Assembly (NCBI RefSeq): GCF_053078305.1 | Contig: NZ_CP166878.1 | Origin: a plasmid | DNA: 32,715 nucleotides | Strand: one strand, 5' to 3' | Part shown: one piece after another, positions 20,388 through 26,343 of the stretch | Layout of the letters: each line of letters begins with the position of its first letter | Numbering within the stretch: position 1 is the stretch's first letter | Position numbers and translations under genes: made by a program | The notes under the pieces: model-generated | What the model saw: only the letters and a program-made list of their open reading frames with translations | The model's database searches: none | Told to the model about the DNA's origin: nothing

Positions 20388-20409
20388 TGTTTGGATAGAG
20401 AATTATTGT
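20388..20409 (+). repeat. GTTTGGATA(TA)GAGAATT motif, copy a
   Basis: One of three direct copies (with 21113-21130 and 22086-22109); this copy lacks the TA dinucleotide. Confidence 0.8.
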
Positions 20410-20431
20410 AATCAAGTGGGAGATATTATTT

Positions 20432-20955: not shown

Positions 20956-21127
20956 GGGATTTAATGTGGAACTGATAACAGATAATTTTTTTGAGTGGGT
21001 GGTGGCTCTCGCTATTTTGAATTTTATCGTCACGTTGAAATCTAAAGAGAAAATAACTTTGTTGTTAACGACGATAATTAGCCTACTTATTGCTTCAATT
21101 ATATTGAGGGCAGTTTGGATATAGAGA
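20956..21127 (+). CDS. Possible small membrane protein (56 aa)
   Basis: GTG-start ORF with two hydrophobic stretches; its stop codon lies inside motif copy b; weak call. Confidence 0.25.
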
Positions 21128-21130
21128 ATT
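21113..21130 (+). repeat. GTTTGGATATAGAGAATT motif, copy b
   Basis: Identical core to copy c; shares preceding GGG-CAG context with copy c. Confidence 0.8.
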
Positions 21131-21529: not shown

Positions 21530-21583
21530 TGATCGTGGCGCGATTGCCAGCGAGCTAGGGGTTCCGTGGGAATTTCTGCGATA

Positions 21584-21621
21584 GGGGTTTGAAGCCCAAC
21601 CGTACGAAAACGTACGCTAAG
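21584..21621 (+). mobile_element. Tn1000/Tn3-family 38-bp terminal inverted repeat
   Basis: GGGGTTTGAAGCCCAACCGTACGAAAACGTACGCTAAG, close to the gamma-delta/Tn3 IR consensus (GGGG...ACGAAAAC...ACG.TAAG); a resolvase gene remnant ends 2 bp away. Confidence 0.75.
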
Positions 21622-21622
21622 T

Positions 21623-21862
21623 TCATTTCTTGAACAACCTGGCTGACTCTATGTATTTGTACAGCGTTGGCCTCGATATCCCCATCAACACACAAATCTG
21701 CGCAACGGTATGTTTTTTCTCGTTATAGAGTTGAACAGCAAGGGCCTGTTTATCCTTACTCAGTGTTTTCGGCCTGCCGCCCTTACGTCCTCTGGCTCGT
21801 GCTGCTTGAAGCCCGGCCTGAGTTCTCTGGGGGGTCGCGCCCATTTCCTCTAAAAGTCTCAC
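21623..21862 (-). pseudogene. Serine recombinase (resolvase/invertase) C-terminal HTH fragment
   Basis: 79-aa ORF containing GRKGGRPK...HTVAQICVLMGISRPTLYKY, the C-terminal DNA-binding domain only; the catalytic N-terminal domain is missing. Confidence 0.7.
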
Positions 21863-21885
21863 CTTGCTTAGGTAATTAATTGAAT

Positions 21886-22100
21886 TTATTTATAAAACAT
21901 TGCAATTTTAGCATCATTTTTTATTGTTCTTTTTAACCTGAAGTACGTCGATCGAGAGATACCTGTTTTTTCTGTCACACTGCCCAGAGATTCTCCCTGT
22001 GATATAAGCTCCAACGCTGTAGGCGTTCGTGGATGCTTCTTCCTGCCAAATTTTACGCCTGCGGCAAGTGCCGCTATTGGGGTCAGTTTGGATATAGAGA
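21886..22100 (-). pseudogene. Second recombinase-like HTH fragment (no start codon)
   Basis: Minus-strand frame encodes ...AALAAGVKFGRKKHPRTPTALELISQGESLGSVTEKTGISRSTYFR, resembling a serine-recombinase C-terminus; the frame runs into motif copy c with no initiator. Confidence 0.4.
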
Positions 22101-22109
22101 ATTATTGTA
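22086..22109 (+). repeat. GTTTGGATATAGAGAATTATTGTA motif, copy c
   Basis: Third direct copy; lies at the 5' truncation point of the recombinase-like fragment. Confidence 0.8.
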
Positions 22110-22404
22110 CGGCAAGCCTGTTTTTTGAACAGACTTACCTATCGCGATAGGGTGTACTCCCGTGCTATACGGCGTTTTCAGGGGCTTTGGCCTTAATCGG
22201 ATAACCTAAATGCGACATAGCAAGAGCGATAACTTAAAGGCGATAGCCGCTGATGTTAAATCAATACGTTAGAATCTTAAATTGATTAAATAATGCGCTT
22301 AACGTACAAAAATTTCCGTTTCCCAAACCGCCCCCATATTGTACGTTTCCCTAACCGACCCCTTACTGGTCGCGGAAAAATCCAGGTTTCCGGCCTGGAA
22401 CCCC

Positions 22405-22536
22405 TATACAATCACTTGATTCGATAATTATAAAATTAAGTGATTTTATGATTGCATGATTCTATGAGCATGGGATTATTAGAATGTTTGGCAGAGGTAC
22501 TATGTGAACAAAGGGGAGGGGAAAATGCCTAAAGTT
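22405..22536 (+). repeat. Orphan duplicate of par promoter-operator plus first 4 parA codons
   Basis: About 94% identical over 132 bp to 24844-24975, including RBS and ATGCCTAAAGTT, then diverges; the operator inverted repeat is degenerate in this copy. Confidence 0.85.
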
Positions 22537-22614
22537 GGAGCAGCGGGAGCGTTCGAACAGAGACTTACGGTTTCGTTCTTTGTGCAGCAGTTGAAACCGT
22601 AATTATTTGTTTTA

Positions 22615-22865
22615 GGGGTTTGAGGCTCAGTGGAACAATAACCGCCGTTAAGCGGTCATTTTAAATAGCCAAAAATCAACCAGCCAATTTACATCGTGAA
22701 TCTGCGTTCTTGGCTATCTGTTTTGGGGGGCCAAGTTGGCTTTACTCATCCTGGCCGTTTGCGGAACAAAAGACGTTGTTGATCTCAACAGATTGATTAA
22801 CCTGTTATTGACCATTCAATTGAACCGCTTAACCGCCTTTTGAGTTCCACTACTCCCCAAACCCC
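22615..22865. mobile_element. Miniature Tn3-family element (TIME-like), 251 bp, with 5-bp target-site duplication
   Basis: 38-bp IRs GGGGTTTGAGGCTCAGTGGAACAATAACCGCCGTTAAG (22615-22652) and inverted GGGGTTTGGGGAGTAGTGGAACTCAAAAGGCGGTTAAG (22828-22865); flanked by direct repeat TTTTA on both sides; no ORF inside. Confidence 0.8.
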
Positions 22866-22882
22866 TTTTATGCCAAGTAGAA

Positions 22883-23091
22883 GGGGTTTGAGGGCCAACC
22901 GTACGAAAACGTACGGTAAGAGGAAAATTATCGTCTTAAAAATCGATTAGTAGACAATGCCGTCCGTTAAGTGCCAATTTTCGATTAAAAAGACACCGTT
23001 TTGATGGCGTTTTTCTATGTCCATTATGTTTTGATATATCAGACAGTTACTTCACTAACGTACGTTTTCGTTCCATTGGACTTCAGCCCCC
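22883..23091. mobile_element. Second miniature Tn3-family element (TIME-like), 209 bp, with 5-bp target-site duplication
   Basis: IR GGGGTTTGAGGGCCAACCGTACGAAAACGTACGGTAAG (22883-22920) and an inverted IR at 23054-23091 that contains TGGAACGAAAACGTACGTTA; flanked by TAGAA on both sides. Confidence 0.75.
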
Positions 23092-23111
23092 TAGAATACG
23101 TCAGATGTGTT

Positions 23112-23333
23112 CTACCTAGATTGTAGAGACTGAATTAGTGCTTCTACTGCCCAATCAGGACAGGTTCTGGAGCTTGGTTTATCCGGGTCATTAATCCAGG
23201 AACGGATAGTTCTTACAGAGCATGGTCGGTGAGTGTATTCACAAATTAGGTTCGCGGCTTGCGCCTGGGTTAACCCGTTATCAGTCAGTAACGTTATAAA
23301 TGCGGCACGGTTATCTGACACTATAAACCCCAT
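23112..23333 (-). CDS. Small putative DNA-binding protein (73 aa)
   Basis: HTH-like segment LTQAQAANLICEYTHRPCSVRTIRSWIN; overlaps the end of the upstream membrane-protein gene by 23 nt. Confidence 0.45.
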   Translation of the reverse strand: MGFIVSDNRAAFITLLTDNGLTQAQAANLICEYTHRPCSVRTIRSWINDPDKPSSRTCPDWAVEALIQSLQSR

Positions 23334-23805
23334 CTTTTTTGAACGTAATGCTAACCTGCCCTTCTGTCGGAACCTCCATTACTTCCCGGATCTTTTTATT
23401 TATGGCAATTTCGGTAGCGCTCACAAAGATCGGAATCCCTTTTGCCGCTATGCTGATAGCTACGGCAATAACCGTCAAAGCAATACAGTAGTATGTTATT
23501 ACTCTAATAATTTCAGCTATATTCTCAGAGGGGGAGTTTCTTAGAAATGTTATTAAATGTATTAATTCTGCTTGATGATAAATAGAATAAAACATAATAG
23601 AGGCAATAAATATTGCGAAACCATGAACAAAATAATGCCAGAGTTTAAGGGGTATTCTCCAAGCAAATCCAATGTAACTGAAAACTGAAGCCACATGAGT
23701 TCTCCAGTCTTTTTTTACTGATTTAACTATTTCTTCATATTGTGATATTGGCATTGAGCCGACTTCAATATTATTGACTTTAACTATCGCTATGCCCTCT
23801 TGCAT
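23311..23805 (-). CDS. Hypothetical membrane protein
   Basis: Start placed at the ATG preceded by a consensus AAGGAG RBS (ORF track extends to 23898); three to four hydrophobic helices. Confidence 0.55.
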   Translation of the reverse strand: MQEGIAIVKVNNIEVGSMPISQYEEIVKSVKKDWRTHVASVFSYIGFAWRIPLKLWHYFVHGFAIFIASIMFYSIYHQAELIHLITFLRNSPSENIAEIIRVITYYCIALTVIAVAISIAAKGIPIFVSATEIAINKKIREVMEVPTEGQVSITFKKDGVYSVR

Positions 23806-23918
23806 GACTTTGTTCTCCTTCTGCCATGATAAAAGATCTTGTTTTACATACCATGATAGGCACATGTGCCTGTTTGGTGCAACATGCTTTACAAACATAA
23901 GAATAATAAAAGGATATA

Positions 23919-23956
23919 ATCCCTTGATTTTGTAATCATATGATTATATGATTGTT
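23919..23956 (+). promoter_or_regulatory. Operator-like block P2 in divergent promoter region
   Basis: ATCCCTTGATTTTGTAATCATATGATTATATGATTGTT, homologous to P1 (20341-20379); lies between divergently oriented genes. Confidence 0.5.
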
Positions 23957-23985
23957 TTTGAGCGTGAATTATTCAGGAGGGAGTT

Positions 23986-24261
23986 ATGAGCCAGTATCGT
24001 TTAACAGGAAAATCAGCATCGCGTAGTTATGAACTTCTGGTTGGCTGGGATACCCCGCTTTCCAGGTTTTTTCTTGTTATTGAGCCAGAACTTGACGAGC
24101 CGGTATATTCGAATATTTATGAGAAAGATCCATCATCTTTGACGCTTGAGTTTTTTCAGTCAGTTCTTGAACGTTACGGGATAGAGAATGTATCTCTGCT
24201 GCCTGGTCATGAGTCAGGTTTGTATGAGAAATTGCATGATGATAGAAGAAATAATAACTAG
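23986..24261 (+). CDS. Hypothetical protein (91 aa)
   Basis: Strong AGGAGGGAG RBS; no family recognised. Confidence 0.55.
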   Translation: MSQYRLTGKSASRSYELLVGWDTPLSRFFLVIEPELDEPVYSNIYEKDPSSLTLEFFQSVLERYGIENVSLLPGHESGLYEKLHDDRRNNN

Positions 24262-24293
24262 CGGTTTTTAATGGAATATGCAGGAATATTGCG

Positions 24294-24644
24294 ATGAAAA
24301 TAAAACTAGGGTCAGGTTCGGTATCTGTAAATGGTGTTGTGTATGAAGGAAAGGGGAAAATTATTTCCATATTAAATAATGAAGTCATTATTGATGGTGT
24401 CGTTCATGGGAAAGCCGTAGCTCTTCCTGAAATTACTGTTATTGTTAATGGTCATGTTGATTCATTACATACCGAGTTGGGAAATATAATCATTAATGGT
24501 AATGCTGGTATGGTTAAAACTGCATCGGGGGATGTTTCTTGTGAAAATGTTTCAGGAAATGTTGAGTCTATGAGTGGTAATGTTAATTGTAAAAATGTTT
24601 ATGGTGGAGTTAAAACATTATCTGGAAACATATATAAAGAATGA
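24294..24644 (+). CDS. Repetitive beta-strand protein (bactofilin-like?)
   Basis: 116 aa with recurring V/I-x-G-x-V and SGNV motifs typical of beta-helical repeat proteins; the bactofilin assignment is a guess. Confidence 0.45.
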   Translation: MKIKLGSGSVSVNGVVYEGKGKIISILNNEVIIDGVVHGKAVALPEITVIVNGHVDSLHTELGNIIINGNAGMVKTASGDVSCENVSGNVESMSGNVNCKNVYGGVKTLSGNIYKE

Positions 24645-24843
24645 GTTCATTAAAACCCCGTACAATATATTGTACGGGGGTAGTACAGAAGAGGTATTGG
24701 GTTGCTACATTTCCAGGTTATATGCAGAAACCATTTTTATTTTATCAGGTATTTATTTTTTCTTAATGAGATAGTTCACAAAATCATCAATCCAGGGACT
24801 GTTTTTCGTTATCTGCCGTATCTGCGTACCCCTGATTTTTTGG

Positions 24844-24963
24844 TATACAATCACTTGATTCGATAATCATAAAATCAAGTGATTTTATGATTGCATAATT
24901 TTATGAGTATGAGATTATTAGAATGTTTGGCAGAGGTACTATGTGAACAAAGGGGAGGGGCAA
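24844..24963 (+). promoter_or_regulatory. par promoter-operator (candidate centromere/operator)
   Basis: Perfect 12-bp inverted repeat AATCACTTGATT ... AATCAAGTGATT plus reiterated TGATT motifs directly upstream of parA. Confidence 0.6.
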
Positions 24964-25587
24964 ATGCCTAAAGTTATAGCATTTTTAAATGGTAAGGGGG
25001 GGGTGTCTAAGACAACCTCGGCAGTCAATATTGCTACTGCTCTTGCTCGTAAGGGATACAAAGTTGTCGTTGTGGATACCGATCCTCAGGGAAGTGTTAG
25101 TAACTGGTATGATGACAGTAAGTGTGTTTTTGATGTAGCAGAAGCTACGACAGAAAAAGAAATTTACCGTTTGCGGAAGGCGCTTCCTTTGCACGATTTT
25201 ATCATTATTGATGGTGCTGCGGCGATTTCGGCGATATCGGCAGCTGCTGTTATGGTTTCTGATCTTGTCATTATCCCAGTTACTCCTTCGCCGCTTGATT
25301 TTGCTGCATGTGGCGCGATATTGGCAGTGATAGAAGCTCGGCAGGATTTACGCCCGGTGATTGCTCGCTTTTTGATTACTAAAAAAGTACAGCAAACGCA
25401 TATGCTATCTTTGCTGAAAGAATCTATTGCAGAAACAAGCATACCAGCATTAAAAACAGGAACGTCGTACAGGCAGTCATATATAAAGTCTATGCTAGAT
25501 GGTGGTACTATATTTGATACAAAAGATAGTGCTGCTAAAGGTGAAATATCAGTCATTACAGAAGAAATACTTGGACTATTAAAATGA
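24964..25587 (+). CDS. parA: ParA-family partition ATPase (ParF-like)
   Basis: Deviant Walker [19 protein letters not shown]; ATG 24964 with GGGGAGGGG RBS (ORF track begins at upstream GTG 24943). Confidence 0.9.
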
Positions 25588-25793
25588 GTAAAATGAAACT
25601 TGGGAATCATAAGGCAACAAACACCGCTCTGGATGCACTAAAGAAACCTGCTGGAGCAACCAGGAAATTACAAATGAATATTCCAGAAGAGTTACACCTT
25701 GCATTTAAGTTAGCTTGTGTGGAAGATGGTGTCGATATGACACAGGTAAATATAGAACTAATTCAAAACTGGTTGAAGAGTCGTAACTTATAG
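25584..25793 (+). CDS. ParG-like ribbon-helix-helix centromere-binding protein
   Basis: 69 aa; start overlaps parA stop; C-terminal region [39 protein letters not shown] resembles ParG of TP228 as remembered. Confidence 0.65.
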
Positions 25794-25821
25794 TTTTTGT
25801 TATGATGCATATGGAGGATTT

Positions 25822-26313
25822 ATGGAGTATACACCAATAGCGTTAAGTCCAGGAGCTATGTTGCATAAAGGGAAATTCATTGGTTATGTCATGAAGATCA
25901 GATTTTCCGAGTGTTCTGGAGATCATCTTTTTTATTTGAGATATGATATGGTTGTTGAACTTGCAAGAGCATTAGCAAGAAAAACACACCAGATGTATCT
26001 TAAAGGGACTTTTAGTACAGATGAAAGTAGTCAGGCTACGTTAGAAATGGAAAAGGATTATAAGCAGCATGATATTCATTTAACAAGTGATGAAATATCG
26101 TCACCATCTGTAAATAACTTTGTTGCATTGTTAGATTATAATGTAAGGGATGCATCATTATTATTATCACTAATCAAAAATGATAATTCTAAAATTGATA
26201 TTAGTATACCAGAAGCAGCGGTGGAAATATTTACAGGTTATATGATGAATACTGTTATTAAGGCAGGGGGAGAAGCTTTATCTGAAAAACTTATATCAGA
26301 TATTGGAGTTTAA
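25822..26313 (+). CDS. Hypothetical protein (163 aa)
   Basis: ORF with GGAGG RBS; no family recognised. Confidence 0.5.
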   Translation: MEYTPIALSPGAMLHKGKFIGYVMKIRFSECSGDHLFYLRYDMVVELARALARKTHQMYLKGTFSTDESSQATLEMEKDYKQHDIHLTSDEISSPSVNNFVALLDYNVRDASLLLSLIKNDNSKIDISIPEAAVEIFTGYMMNTVIKAGGEALSEKLISDIGV

Positions 26314-26343
26314 TTATTGCTGCCAGGTAAACGCGAACGCTCA

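Follow-up and report, generated by a model that had tools for sequence, protein, structure and literature searches.

Why does a single plasmid spacer carry so many Tn3-family transposon ends, and are the small units that some of these ends enclose mobile in their own right or the debris of larger transposons? The question arises from a ~30-kb E. coli-type plasmid (the window is the whole stretch of DNA analyzed, 32,715 nucleotides of NZ_CP166878.1), in which a 1.5-kb intergenic cluster is bordered by a 105-aa ORF and the parA operon. With a probability of roughly 0.9, we conclude that Tn3-family termini accumulated in a dispensable spacer and that two of the units, a 251-bp element and a 209-bp element assigned to IS101, are nonautonomous miniature elements (TIMEs), each the product of its own transposition event.

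An initial annotation had placed five Tn3-family inverted repeats (IRs) in 1.5 kb. All five lie where it put them, the last with the terminus TTAGT rather than TAAG, but five is an undercount, roughly half of what the cluster contains (Table 1). Eight Tn3-family elements are represented in 21558-23091 by pieces that together have eleven termini, and the pattern GGGG-N30-TAAG occurs five times in the window against 0.64 expected (five or more in 0/100 shuffles). Overlooked were a sixth GGGG..TAAG repeat, which forms the right end of a MITESen1-like element, the end of the transposon TnB with its own resolvase remnant (21829-22078), and truncated ends at 21558-21583 and 22336-22404. Judged by tblastn with three TnpA queries, the window lacks a Tn3-family transposase gene. 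Rfam gave no match. Scans for promoters and terminators returned counts not above chance; we therefore claim no regulatory role.

Table 1. Tn3-family features of the spacer, in window coordinates. IRs placed by the initial annotation are marked (a).
Feature	Position	Strand	Remarks
IR X, lone Tn3-family IR, outer 26 bp	21558..21583	+	GGGGTTCCGTGGGAATTTCTGCGATA; cut off by TnA
TnA 38-bp terminal IR (a)	21584..21621	+	TnA is a Tn1000-related 3,870-bp transposon
TnA resolvase gene, 3' remnant	21623..21828	-	last 67 codons and stop
TnB terminal IR	21829..21867	+	TnB is a 3,900-bp Tn3-family transposon inside the TnA resolvase gene
TnB resolvase gene, 3' remnant	21886..22078	-	last 63 codons and stop; cut off by the MITESen1-like element
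MITESen1-like miniature element, complete, 257 bp	22079..22335	+	IRs 22079-22116 (+) and 22298-22335 (-)
End fragments	22336..22404	-	IR-like piece of 27 bp (22336-22362), followed by the right end of a miniature element of ~205 bp (IR GGGGTTCCAGGCCGGAAACCTGGATTTTTCCGCGACCAGTAAG)
TTTTA target duplication of the 251-bp element	22610..22614 (left); 22866..22870 (right)		
251-bp miniature element	22615..22865	+	no ORF; 38-bp IRs 22615-22652 (+) (a) and 22828-22865 (-) (a)
TAGAA target duplication of the 209-bp element	22878..22882 (left); 23092..23096 (right)		
209-bp element, assigned to IS101 as a variant	22883..23091	-	reversed relative to published IS101; IRs 22883-22920 (+) (a) and 23054-23091 (-) (a)

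The right half of the cluster holds the clearest record of insertion. The two miniature elements described initially as ORF-less proved exact in size (251 and 209 bp) and are bounded by Tn3-family IRs; the only ORF of at least 40 aa that overlaps either one (23001-23126, 41 aa, over the end of the 209-bp element) does not encode a transposase. Perfect 5-bp direct repeats flank each element, and the chance of both pairs of flanks matching fortuitously is ~1.3e-6. The elements are separated by 17 bp, as annotated, which leaves 7 bp between their target duplications. The search for an empty site, proposed along with these claims, was positive. Exact-protein look-up of a neighboring 73-aa ORF (the same look-up with a 195-aa ORF gave no match) led to a relative (L023; GCA_005044695.1, RRGK01000044.1) in which the target is uninterrupted and reads TTTGTTTTATGCCAAGTAGAATACG / GTAATTATTTGTTTTATGCCAAGTAGAATACGTCAG / GAAACCGTAATTATTTGTTTTATGCCAAGTAGAATACGTCAGATG, with a single TTTTA, a single TAGAA, and neither element. 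This sequence is 100% identical to the window over 22537-22614 and 99.6% identical over 23092-26334. The empty site is represented by one contig, reported in two samples. With the target restored in silico as the query, PLSDB contained no empty site, and the PLSDB sequence closest to the right flank, at 71%, lies on a Serratia plasmid. RefSeq E. coli yielded no record with this arrangement or flank, and the junction pattern YYYSTTTTATGCCAAGTAGAAKRSG was absent from the GTDB genomes and JGI metagenomes scanned for exact matches. The locus provides an empty-site-verified example of two independent miniature insertions; it is ordinary mobile-DNA biology, cleanly documented, and leaves the accepted picture of these elements unchanged.

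The smaller element aligns with IS101 of pSC101 (NC_002056.1 positions 2024-2232; sequence in Table S2 of PMC13367494) at 93.8% identity over 209/209 bp. The two are alike in their length of 209 bp, 38-bp Tn1000-type IRs, res-like interior, and 5-bp duplication, and they differ by 13 substitutions. Judged by its sequence, the element, as a pSC101-collinear unit with both IRs and a putatively res-related interior, is IS101. Gomi & Yano counted IS101 copies at ≥95% identity, and relative to that cutoff this alignment identifies the window copy as a diverged variant. Local alignment of the interior to the res of Tn1000 scored 160, compared with 74 ± 12 for shuffles (z = 7.4), and the variant carries a predicted res that resembles the Tn1000 type. 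Passages in PMC13367494 and PMC4133298, each citing Ishizaki & Ohtsubo 1985, state that the Tn1000 transposase mobilizes IS101 in trans, and statements in the same two sources describe the IS101 res as functional. PLSDB contains 437 records of the 209-bp element at ≥80% coverage, and copies 100% identical to the one in the window are present in NZ_CP085077.1 and CP088859.1.

The 251-bp element belongs to a family found in 142 PLSDB plasmids (≥80% coverage, 76-99% identity), including the ColV group of avian-pathogenic E. coli. Its IRs match each other at 28/38 positions and can be extended to 62 nt at 71%; they follow the pattern GGGGTTTGRGG..AGTGGAAC..CGGTTAAG and are accompanied by conserved subterminal blocks of 40 bp. 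Conservation is concentrated in ~80 bp at each end (80-89%, compared with 68-77% in the center). Eleven sampled copies, the one in the window included, lie in eleven different contexts with different flanks. Perfect 5-bp duplications surround two further copies (ACGTT and GTTTT). Since 8 of the 10 sampled copies outside the window lack a duplication, much of the spread appears to have occurred through rearrangement or inheritance along with the host plasmid. The element has no sequence similarity to IS101, MITESen1, TIME244, or IMU, and a comparison with the res regions of Tn1000, TnA, and TnB gave nothing above shuffles. A parent transposon with matching IRs was not found; partial BLAST hits were followed and rejected as parents, being only broken copies beside IS elements or group II introns. 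The searchable literature offers no name for the family. The element resembles known TIMEs (TIME1-4 of Pseudomonas, TIME244, and IMU) in being shorter than 500 bp, lacking an ORF, and having GGGG...TAAG IRs, and it also has the 5-bp duplication, multiple copies, and long hairpin of TIMEs generally. It is probably a new member of this kind, from an apparently unnamed family.

Both elements combine a length within ~50-500 bp and no transposase gene with IRs of ~38 bp, a 5-bp duplication (rarely 6 bp among TIMEs) whose target is uninterrupted elsewhere, and occurrence in multiple contexts. That they are TIMEs, as first suggested, is supported by the empty site and by same-length units in many unrelated plasmids. 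An alternative is that they are full-length transposons that lost their interiors in place and never transposed as miniatures. Truncated copies of TnA and TnB do adjoin them, and the ends and predicted res of IS101 resemble those of Tn1000-type transposons. Loss in place does not, however, account for units of 209 and 251 bp with constant boundaries on hundreds of unrelated plasmids in differing contexts and with differing duplications, nor for the complete identity of the window IS101 to copies elsewhere; movement of IS101 as such is, moreover, described in passages of PMC4133298 and PMC13367494. We regard interior loss as highly improbable. Because same-length units with differing duplications recur in unrelated plasmids, the two elements are mobile miniature elements and not local debris. 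Both insertion products, their duplications, the empty site, the multicopy distribution, and the lack of a transposase gene in the window were observed directly.

The 251-bp element and IS101 each arrived separately in an AT-rich stretch; the acting transposase and the route of cointegrate resolution we infer as follows. The 38-bp IRs would be bound by a Tn3-family transposase supplied from another source in the cell, and replicative "paste-and-copy" transposition would then join the two replicons, donor and target, into a cointegrate in which both junctions carry the element. The IS101 cointegrate could be resolved by a resolvase via the predicted Tn1000-type res, while homologous recombination is the likely route for the 251-bp element because it has no recognizable res. 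The end product would be a simple insertion between 5-bp duplications.

The left block preserves older nested insertions, and its breakpoints are exact (21583/21584, 21828/21829, and 22078/22079). Its outermost piece, IR X, is uninterrupted (GGGGTCCGTGGGAATTTCTGCGATAACACCCGCTAAG) in the relatives L002, L004, and L023; the first 46-48 bp recur in many plasmids at 96-98%, and the inner part was not found anywhere in the window. The claim that an IR adjoins a resolvase C-terminal remnant is borne out, as 21584-21828 corresponds to positions 1-245 of TnA, which is complete on plasmid p948 of ETEC H10407, at 99.6% identity. The remnant was assigned by identity at the DNA level to a gene annotated "recombinase family protein," a tblastn match, and its translation; matches to the serine-recombinase HTH were weak. 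Adjacent to it, 21829-22078 corresponds to positions 1-250 of TnB at 99.2%, and the encoded remnant matches TnB TnpR residues 131-193 at 98.4% (tblastn). On pFHI_NMBU_11_03, which belongs to the same family of plasmids, TnB is complete and has the duplication AACAT on both sides.

The next unit, which shares both IRs with the 256-bp MITESen1 reference (the ISfinder sequence as listed in Table S2 of PMC13367494), aligns to it over the full length at 88% identity, is 257 bp long, and abuts the truncated resolvase gene. Because its full-coverage match reaches only 88% identity, compared with the ≥95% identity and coverage used for MITESen1 by Gomi & Yano, the label MITESen1-like fits it best. A target duplication is lacking; the flanks CTATT and ATATT match at 4/5 positions and were rejected as one because the right flank is not TnB sequence. 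Among the end fragments, 22353-22404 aligns at 90.6% identity with the right end of a 260-bp IR-bounded unit in L002. The distribution of that unit in L002 and L004 ruled it out as one element: it consists of a lone IR (positions 1-48) and a separate ~205-bp miniature element (56-260), which was found again in other plasmids. Each element of the left block lost its far side, and none therefore keeps a duplication. The loss likely occurred through adjacent deletions or inversions by intramolecular transposition or through recombination between related plasmids.

The description of the ends as Tn1000-like holds in part. Of 38 positions, the IRs share 27-34 (the TnA IR, 32) with that of Tn1000, for which the F plasmid copy served as reference, but no Tn1000 IR occurs in the window at ≤3 mismatches, which rules out exact Tn1000 ends and leaves related, nonidentical ones. 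The resolvase remnant belongs to TnA, so Tn1000 itself was rejected as its source. Compared with Tn1000 (gamma-delta), TnA encodes a TnpA that is 63% identical and a TnpR that is 33% identical, and it is a minimal 3.87-kb tnpR-res-tnpA transposon, whereas Tn1000 is 5.98 kb.

The two right-hand elements had also been read as marking an insertion hotspot. Differing sites in relatives and nests elsewhere suggest one, although these observations are not separated from selection, spacer tolerance, or recombination. In particular, there may be no hotspot at all: the spacer of a compact plasmid may simply tolerate insertions, and recombination between relatives may have stacked independent pieces. 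The left block, with one-sided ends and no duplications, fits this account, as does a 132-bp second copy of the parA upstream region inside the cluster, whose identity to the window's own is only 94.7%, suggesting that it came from a diverged relative. Sequence to the left of the cluster matches L023 at 96.4% identity and sequence to the right at 99.6%, and the spacer arrangement differs in each relative compared, except for the pairs L002/L004 and L006/L007. Two independent insertions 7 bp apart would nonetheless be improbable on a 30-kb plasmid, even if only a few kilobases are permissive, and similar miniature elements adjoin or nest on ColV, Salmonella megaplasmid, IncL/M, and IncF backbones. 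We give tolerance with recombination slightly less than an even chance.

Alternatively, Tn3-family ends could attract further Tn3-family insertions through end-like sequence or local DNA structure, which would produce nesting. The density of termini in 1.5 kb invites this idea, and TnA lies inside IR X with TnB inside TnA. Beyond the window, the 251-bp element is found inside a ~205-bp miniature element on ColV plasmids and between an IS101-like element and IR X on a Salmonella plasmid, and on three other backbones 56-970 bp separate MITESen1 from IS101. These examples come from a small, biased sample in which joined BLAST pieces rank high, favoring collinear neighbors, and the accessory regions of plasmids concentrate mobile DNA of all kinds. 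For the same reason, a composite unit of MITESen1 and IS101, suggested by their matching order and orientation on four backbones, was rejected: the search joins collinear pieces only. Under Tn3 target immunity, a replicon that already carries an end is protected from cognate insertions. For cognate ends, this predicts the opposite of nesting, a point also raised in PMC4133298, and we consider attraction by resident ends unlikely.

Immunity also bears on the preferred reading of separate insertions into a dispensable spacer. Counted against it, besides the missing parent of the 251-bp element, the scarcity of duplications in its family, and the single empty-site contig, is a TnA-type IR that matches the right IR of IS101 at 35/38 positions and lies 1.3 kb from that element. 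Target immunity of the Tn3 type, if applicable here, should have discouraged IS101 insertion near such an IR; recombination may, however, have brought the two halves of the cluster, left and right, together. The locus therefore bears on whether this immunity acts between related, nonidentical ends, and nesting, if true, would contradict the usual expectation. More speculative is the broader proposal that Tn3-family miniatures insert preferentially into or beside Tn3-family ends, giving recurrent "TIME nests" on unrelated plasmids. Equally doubtful is its combination with the view that the 251-bp family is a new widespread TIME whose ~80-bp conserved ends mark the helper transposon. Were nesting to hold, target immunity might broadly protect a small plasmid with diverse orphan ends from full-length Tn3-family transposons.

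Dense stacking of ends in one spacer matters for reconstructing plasmid history, yet standard annotation pipelines leave miniature Tn3-family elements unmarked: none of the copies whose annotation we examined carried a feature. According to PMC13367494, the MITEs from Enterobacteriaceae that ISfinder has registered number only three. The same 2026 survey reports that element pairs of this kind move antibiotic-resistance genes, such as blaKPC-2.

The two miniature elements in the cluster are independent insertions, probably the products of transposition in trans. Tn3-type termini (GGGG...TAAG) begin at 21584(+), 22615(+), 22865(-), 22883(+), and 23091(-), precisely where the initial annotation had placed them. 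There are five occurrences of the GGGG-N30-TAAG pattern across the 32.7-kb window against an expectation of 0.64, and all lie within 21584-22920. Element A (251 bp) and element B (209 bp) are separated by 17 bases and carry perfect 5-bp repeats, so the reported sizes, flanks, and gap were all exact (Table). As also described, neither encodes a transposase; the sole ORF of at least 40 aa overlapping either one (41 aa, 23001-23126) crosses the end of element B. Coincidental flanks are improbable: at the window's base composition, a chance match is expected at ~1/860 for one flank and ~1.3e-6 for both, and each pentamer occurs singly at an unoccupied site.

Features of the Tn3-family cluster, with identities of the ends to the Tn1000 right inverted repeat (IR)
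Feature	Coordinates	Size or portion retained	Flanks or context	Ends vs Tn1000 right IR
IR X	21558-21583	Lone IR	Interrupted by TnA; intact in relatives	
TnA remnant	21584-21828	IR and last 67 codons of tnpR		32/38 (IR at 21584)
Second resolvase remnant (TnB)	21886-22078	63 codons		
MITESen1-like element		Complete, 257 bp; 88% identity to MITESen1	Truncates TnB at 22078	
End fragments	22336-22404	Short IR-like piece and right end of ~205-bp miniature element		
Element A	22615-22865	251 bp	TTTTA on either flank	30/38 and 27/38
Element B (IS101)	22883-23091	209 bp	TAGAA on either flank	34/38 and 32/38

That site was located by exact look-up of the 73-aa ORF immediately right of element B, on a 35.9-kb NCBI assembly contig of the same plasmid family (L023; GCA_005044695.1, RRGK01000044.1). 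Its reverse complement reads ...GAAACCGTAATTATTTGTTTTATGCCAAGTAGAATACGTCAGATGTG..., matching window 22537-22614 at 100%, followed by TGCCAAG and then window 23092-26334 at 99.6%. Both elements are absent, and TTTTA and TAGAA are present in one copy each, the outcome sought by the empty-site check that the initial annotation had proposed. Because Tn3-family elements transpose replicatively, without precise excision, L023 represents the ancestral target, and elements A and B therefore inserted separately, with 7 bp between their duplications. No empty site was retrieved from PLSDB with the target sequence restored in silico as query, and exact scans of GTDB genomes and JGI metagenomes for the four possible junction states gave no further matches. 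The empty site supports trans-mobilized replicative transposition that leaves a 5-bp duplication, the textbook mechanism for the Tn3 family, and the original interpretation was right. The window contains no Tn3-family transposase gene, so any movement depends on a helper elsewhere in the cell; we infer both that helper and the route by which the two elements were resolved. Element A sits in a T-rich tail (AATTATTTGTTTTA) following a hairpin with an 8-bp stem (ACGGTTTC...GAAACCGT; window 22568-22614), an arrangement that resembles a terminator with a loop exceeding the scan's rule.

By sequence identity, element B is IS101, an already known element. It matches the pSC101 copy at 93.8% across all 209 bp (NC_002056.1; published sequence as reproduced in Table S2 of Gomi & Yano 2026, PMC13367494). 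IS101 occurs at ≥80% coverage on 437 PLSDB plasmids, and other E. coli plasmids hold copies 100% identical to that of the window. Its interior resembles the Tn1000 res region, taken from the F plasmid, far more than shuffled sequence does (z = 7.4), in agreement with published reports of a working IS101 res and of cointegrates formed and resolved with Tn1000 present (PMC13367494 and PMC4133298, both citing Ishizaki & Ohtsubo 1985). The right IR (23054-23091) is nearest to that of TnA, one of two Tn3-family transposons with truncated copies in the window (35/38), and the left (22883-22920) to Tn1000 (32/38). Since the IRs resemble different transposons and match each other at only 28/38 positions, IS101 may have arisen as a two-parent hybrid.

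Element A showed no similarity to IS101, MITESen1, TIME244, or IMU. Its family is found on 142 PLSDB plasmids (≥80% coverage, 76-99% identity), mostly from E. coli but also from Salmonella, Klebsiella, Enterobacter, and Serratia. Flanks differ among all 10 further copies retrieved, two of which have perfect 5-bp duplications (ACGTT, GTTTT) and eight none. In an alignment of eleven copies, with conservation computed among eight divergent ones, conservation is 80-89% over the outer 38 bp and adjacent ~45 bp of each end and 68-77% in the center, which suggests that ~80 bp at either end is required in cis. In the conserved right subterminal block, 22786-22798 fits the IHF consensus (WATCAANNNNTTR), a consensus match only. 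Three of the six such matches in the window fall within the cluster (also 22259-22271 and 22409-22421), one of them in the MITESen1-like element and one in this right block. Comparison with the res sites of Tn1000, TnA, and the second truncated transposon, TnB, detected no res-like sequence in element A. Folded as RNA, it forms a long hairpin typical of MITEs (-83 kcal/mol, z = -5.2). No name for it was found in the searchable literature, and the element appears to be an undescribed member of an established type. As of January 2026, ISfinder held only three Enterobacteriaceae MITEs (Gomi & Yano, PMC13367494). On another plasmid (L020, NZ_OP242220.1 24776-25312), a diverged 237-bp copy directly adjoins a resolvase gene truncated mid-sequence, recalling the window's two IR-to-truncated-resolvase junctions.

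The description of the cluster as Tn1000-like required narrowing. Scored against the right IR of Tn1000, which spans F plasmid positions 4191-10171, no cluster end came within three mismatches. The label suits IS101, the IR at 21584, and element A (27-34/38) but not the remaining ends: those of the MITESen1-like element, TnB, IR X, and the ~205-bp element share ≤20/38 positions with Tn1000 and thus belong to other Tn3-family lineages. The resolvase C-terminal remnant beside the IR at 21584 is real and is the end of TnA, whose first 245 bp match at 99.6%. Complete TnA (3,870 bp; IR - tnpR - res - tnpA - IR) resides on ETEC H10407 plasmid p948; it shares 63% transposase identity with Tn1000 but only 33% resolvase identity. 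From 21829, the match is instead to the first 250 bp of TnB (99.2% identity), indicating that TnB inserted into the TnA resolvase gene. TnB (3,900 bp) is complete, with AACAT flanks, in pFHI_NMBU_11_03 of the same plasmid family. Between 21558 and 23091 there are eleven termini from eight Tn3-family elements; the initial annotation had found five termini and overlooked TnB, the MITESen1-like element, IR X, and the end fragments. Neither the two truncated transposons nor the MITESen1-like element is itself out of the ordinary. The latter has no target duplication, and no left-hand piece keeps a far side or duplication, as would be left by adjacent deletions or inversions via intramolecular replicative transposition or by recombination between plasmids. 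In the backbone, 24-nt matches to the MITESen1 left IR at 21108-21130 (96%; also kept in relatives L001, L002, and L004) and 20389-20410 (92%) could be coincidental or could be remains of very old ends.

The window matches E. coli plasmids of ~29-35 kb at 97.5-99% identity, a family with RepA, a VirB-type secretion system, and a ParA/ParG partition module; its own arrangement was not found in PLSDB or RefSeq E. coli. The spacer between a 105-aa ORF and the parA operon differs among six relatives except for two matching pairs. L002 and L004 contain IR X and the ~205-bp element; in L001, a MITESen1-type IR is followed by IS101 (100% identical to the window copy, with different flanks) and then a ~205-bp element end; in L005, the order is inverted and the MITESen1-like copy, 99% identical to that of the window, is partial; L006 and L007 retain inverted fragments only. 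Window 22405-22536 (132 bp) repeats the parA upstream region and first four parA codons, with only 94.7% identity to the window's own version at 24844-24975, and is joined at 22536/22537 to unrelated sequence, yielding a 25-codon ORF (MPKVGAAGAFEQRLTVSFFVQQLKP*). This segment appears to have been acquired from a diverged relative. This copy and the unequal identity to L023 on either side of the cluster (96.4% left, 99.6% right) point to recombination between diverged relatives. Window 23097-23893, with two minus-strand ORFs (195 and 73 aa) lacking NCBIfam matches, is also present in L023, but every PLSDB and RefSeq relative lacks it, the spacer joining directly at 23894; its nearest DNA match is a Serratia proteamaculans plasmid (71%).

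The spacer may be an insertion hotspot for Tn3-family elements. A locally AT-rich stretch (33% G+C versus ~41% in the window) received two independent insertions 7 bp from each other, the Tn3-family pieces are polymorphic throughout the plasmid family, and such elements are nested or adjacent on unrelated backbones too. On ColV-type plasmids (NZ_CP022731.1), element A interrupts a ~205-bp element copy at position 246. On a Salmonella plasmid (CP022660.1), a 251-bp family copy adjoins an IS101-like element truncated at position 130, with a lone IR X 50 bp to its right. MITESen1 and IS101 are 56-970 bp apart in an IncL/M plasmid (standing for 25 same-pattern Klebsiella, Enterobacter, and Citrobacter matches), pR1282, and an IncF plasmid. 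Preferential nesting of TIME-type miniature elements is a possible but less likely reading. However, this sample is small and biased by the ranking of matches, compact plasmids tolerate insertions in few places, and part of the window's cluster was clearly built by recombination. Most TIMEs are single-copy per genome, for which transposition immunity has been proposed (Szuplewska et al., PMC4133298); the near-cognate TnA IR and IS101 right IR (35/38), 1.3 kb apart, need not contradict this, as that would depend on the order of events. In NZ_CP012498.1 (79121-80537), MITESen1-like and IS101-like elements enclose a DUF6710-family gene ~970 bp long, a unit that could be a composite (TIME-COMP-like) with unlike ends.
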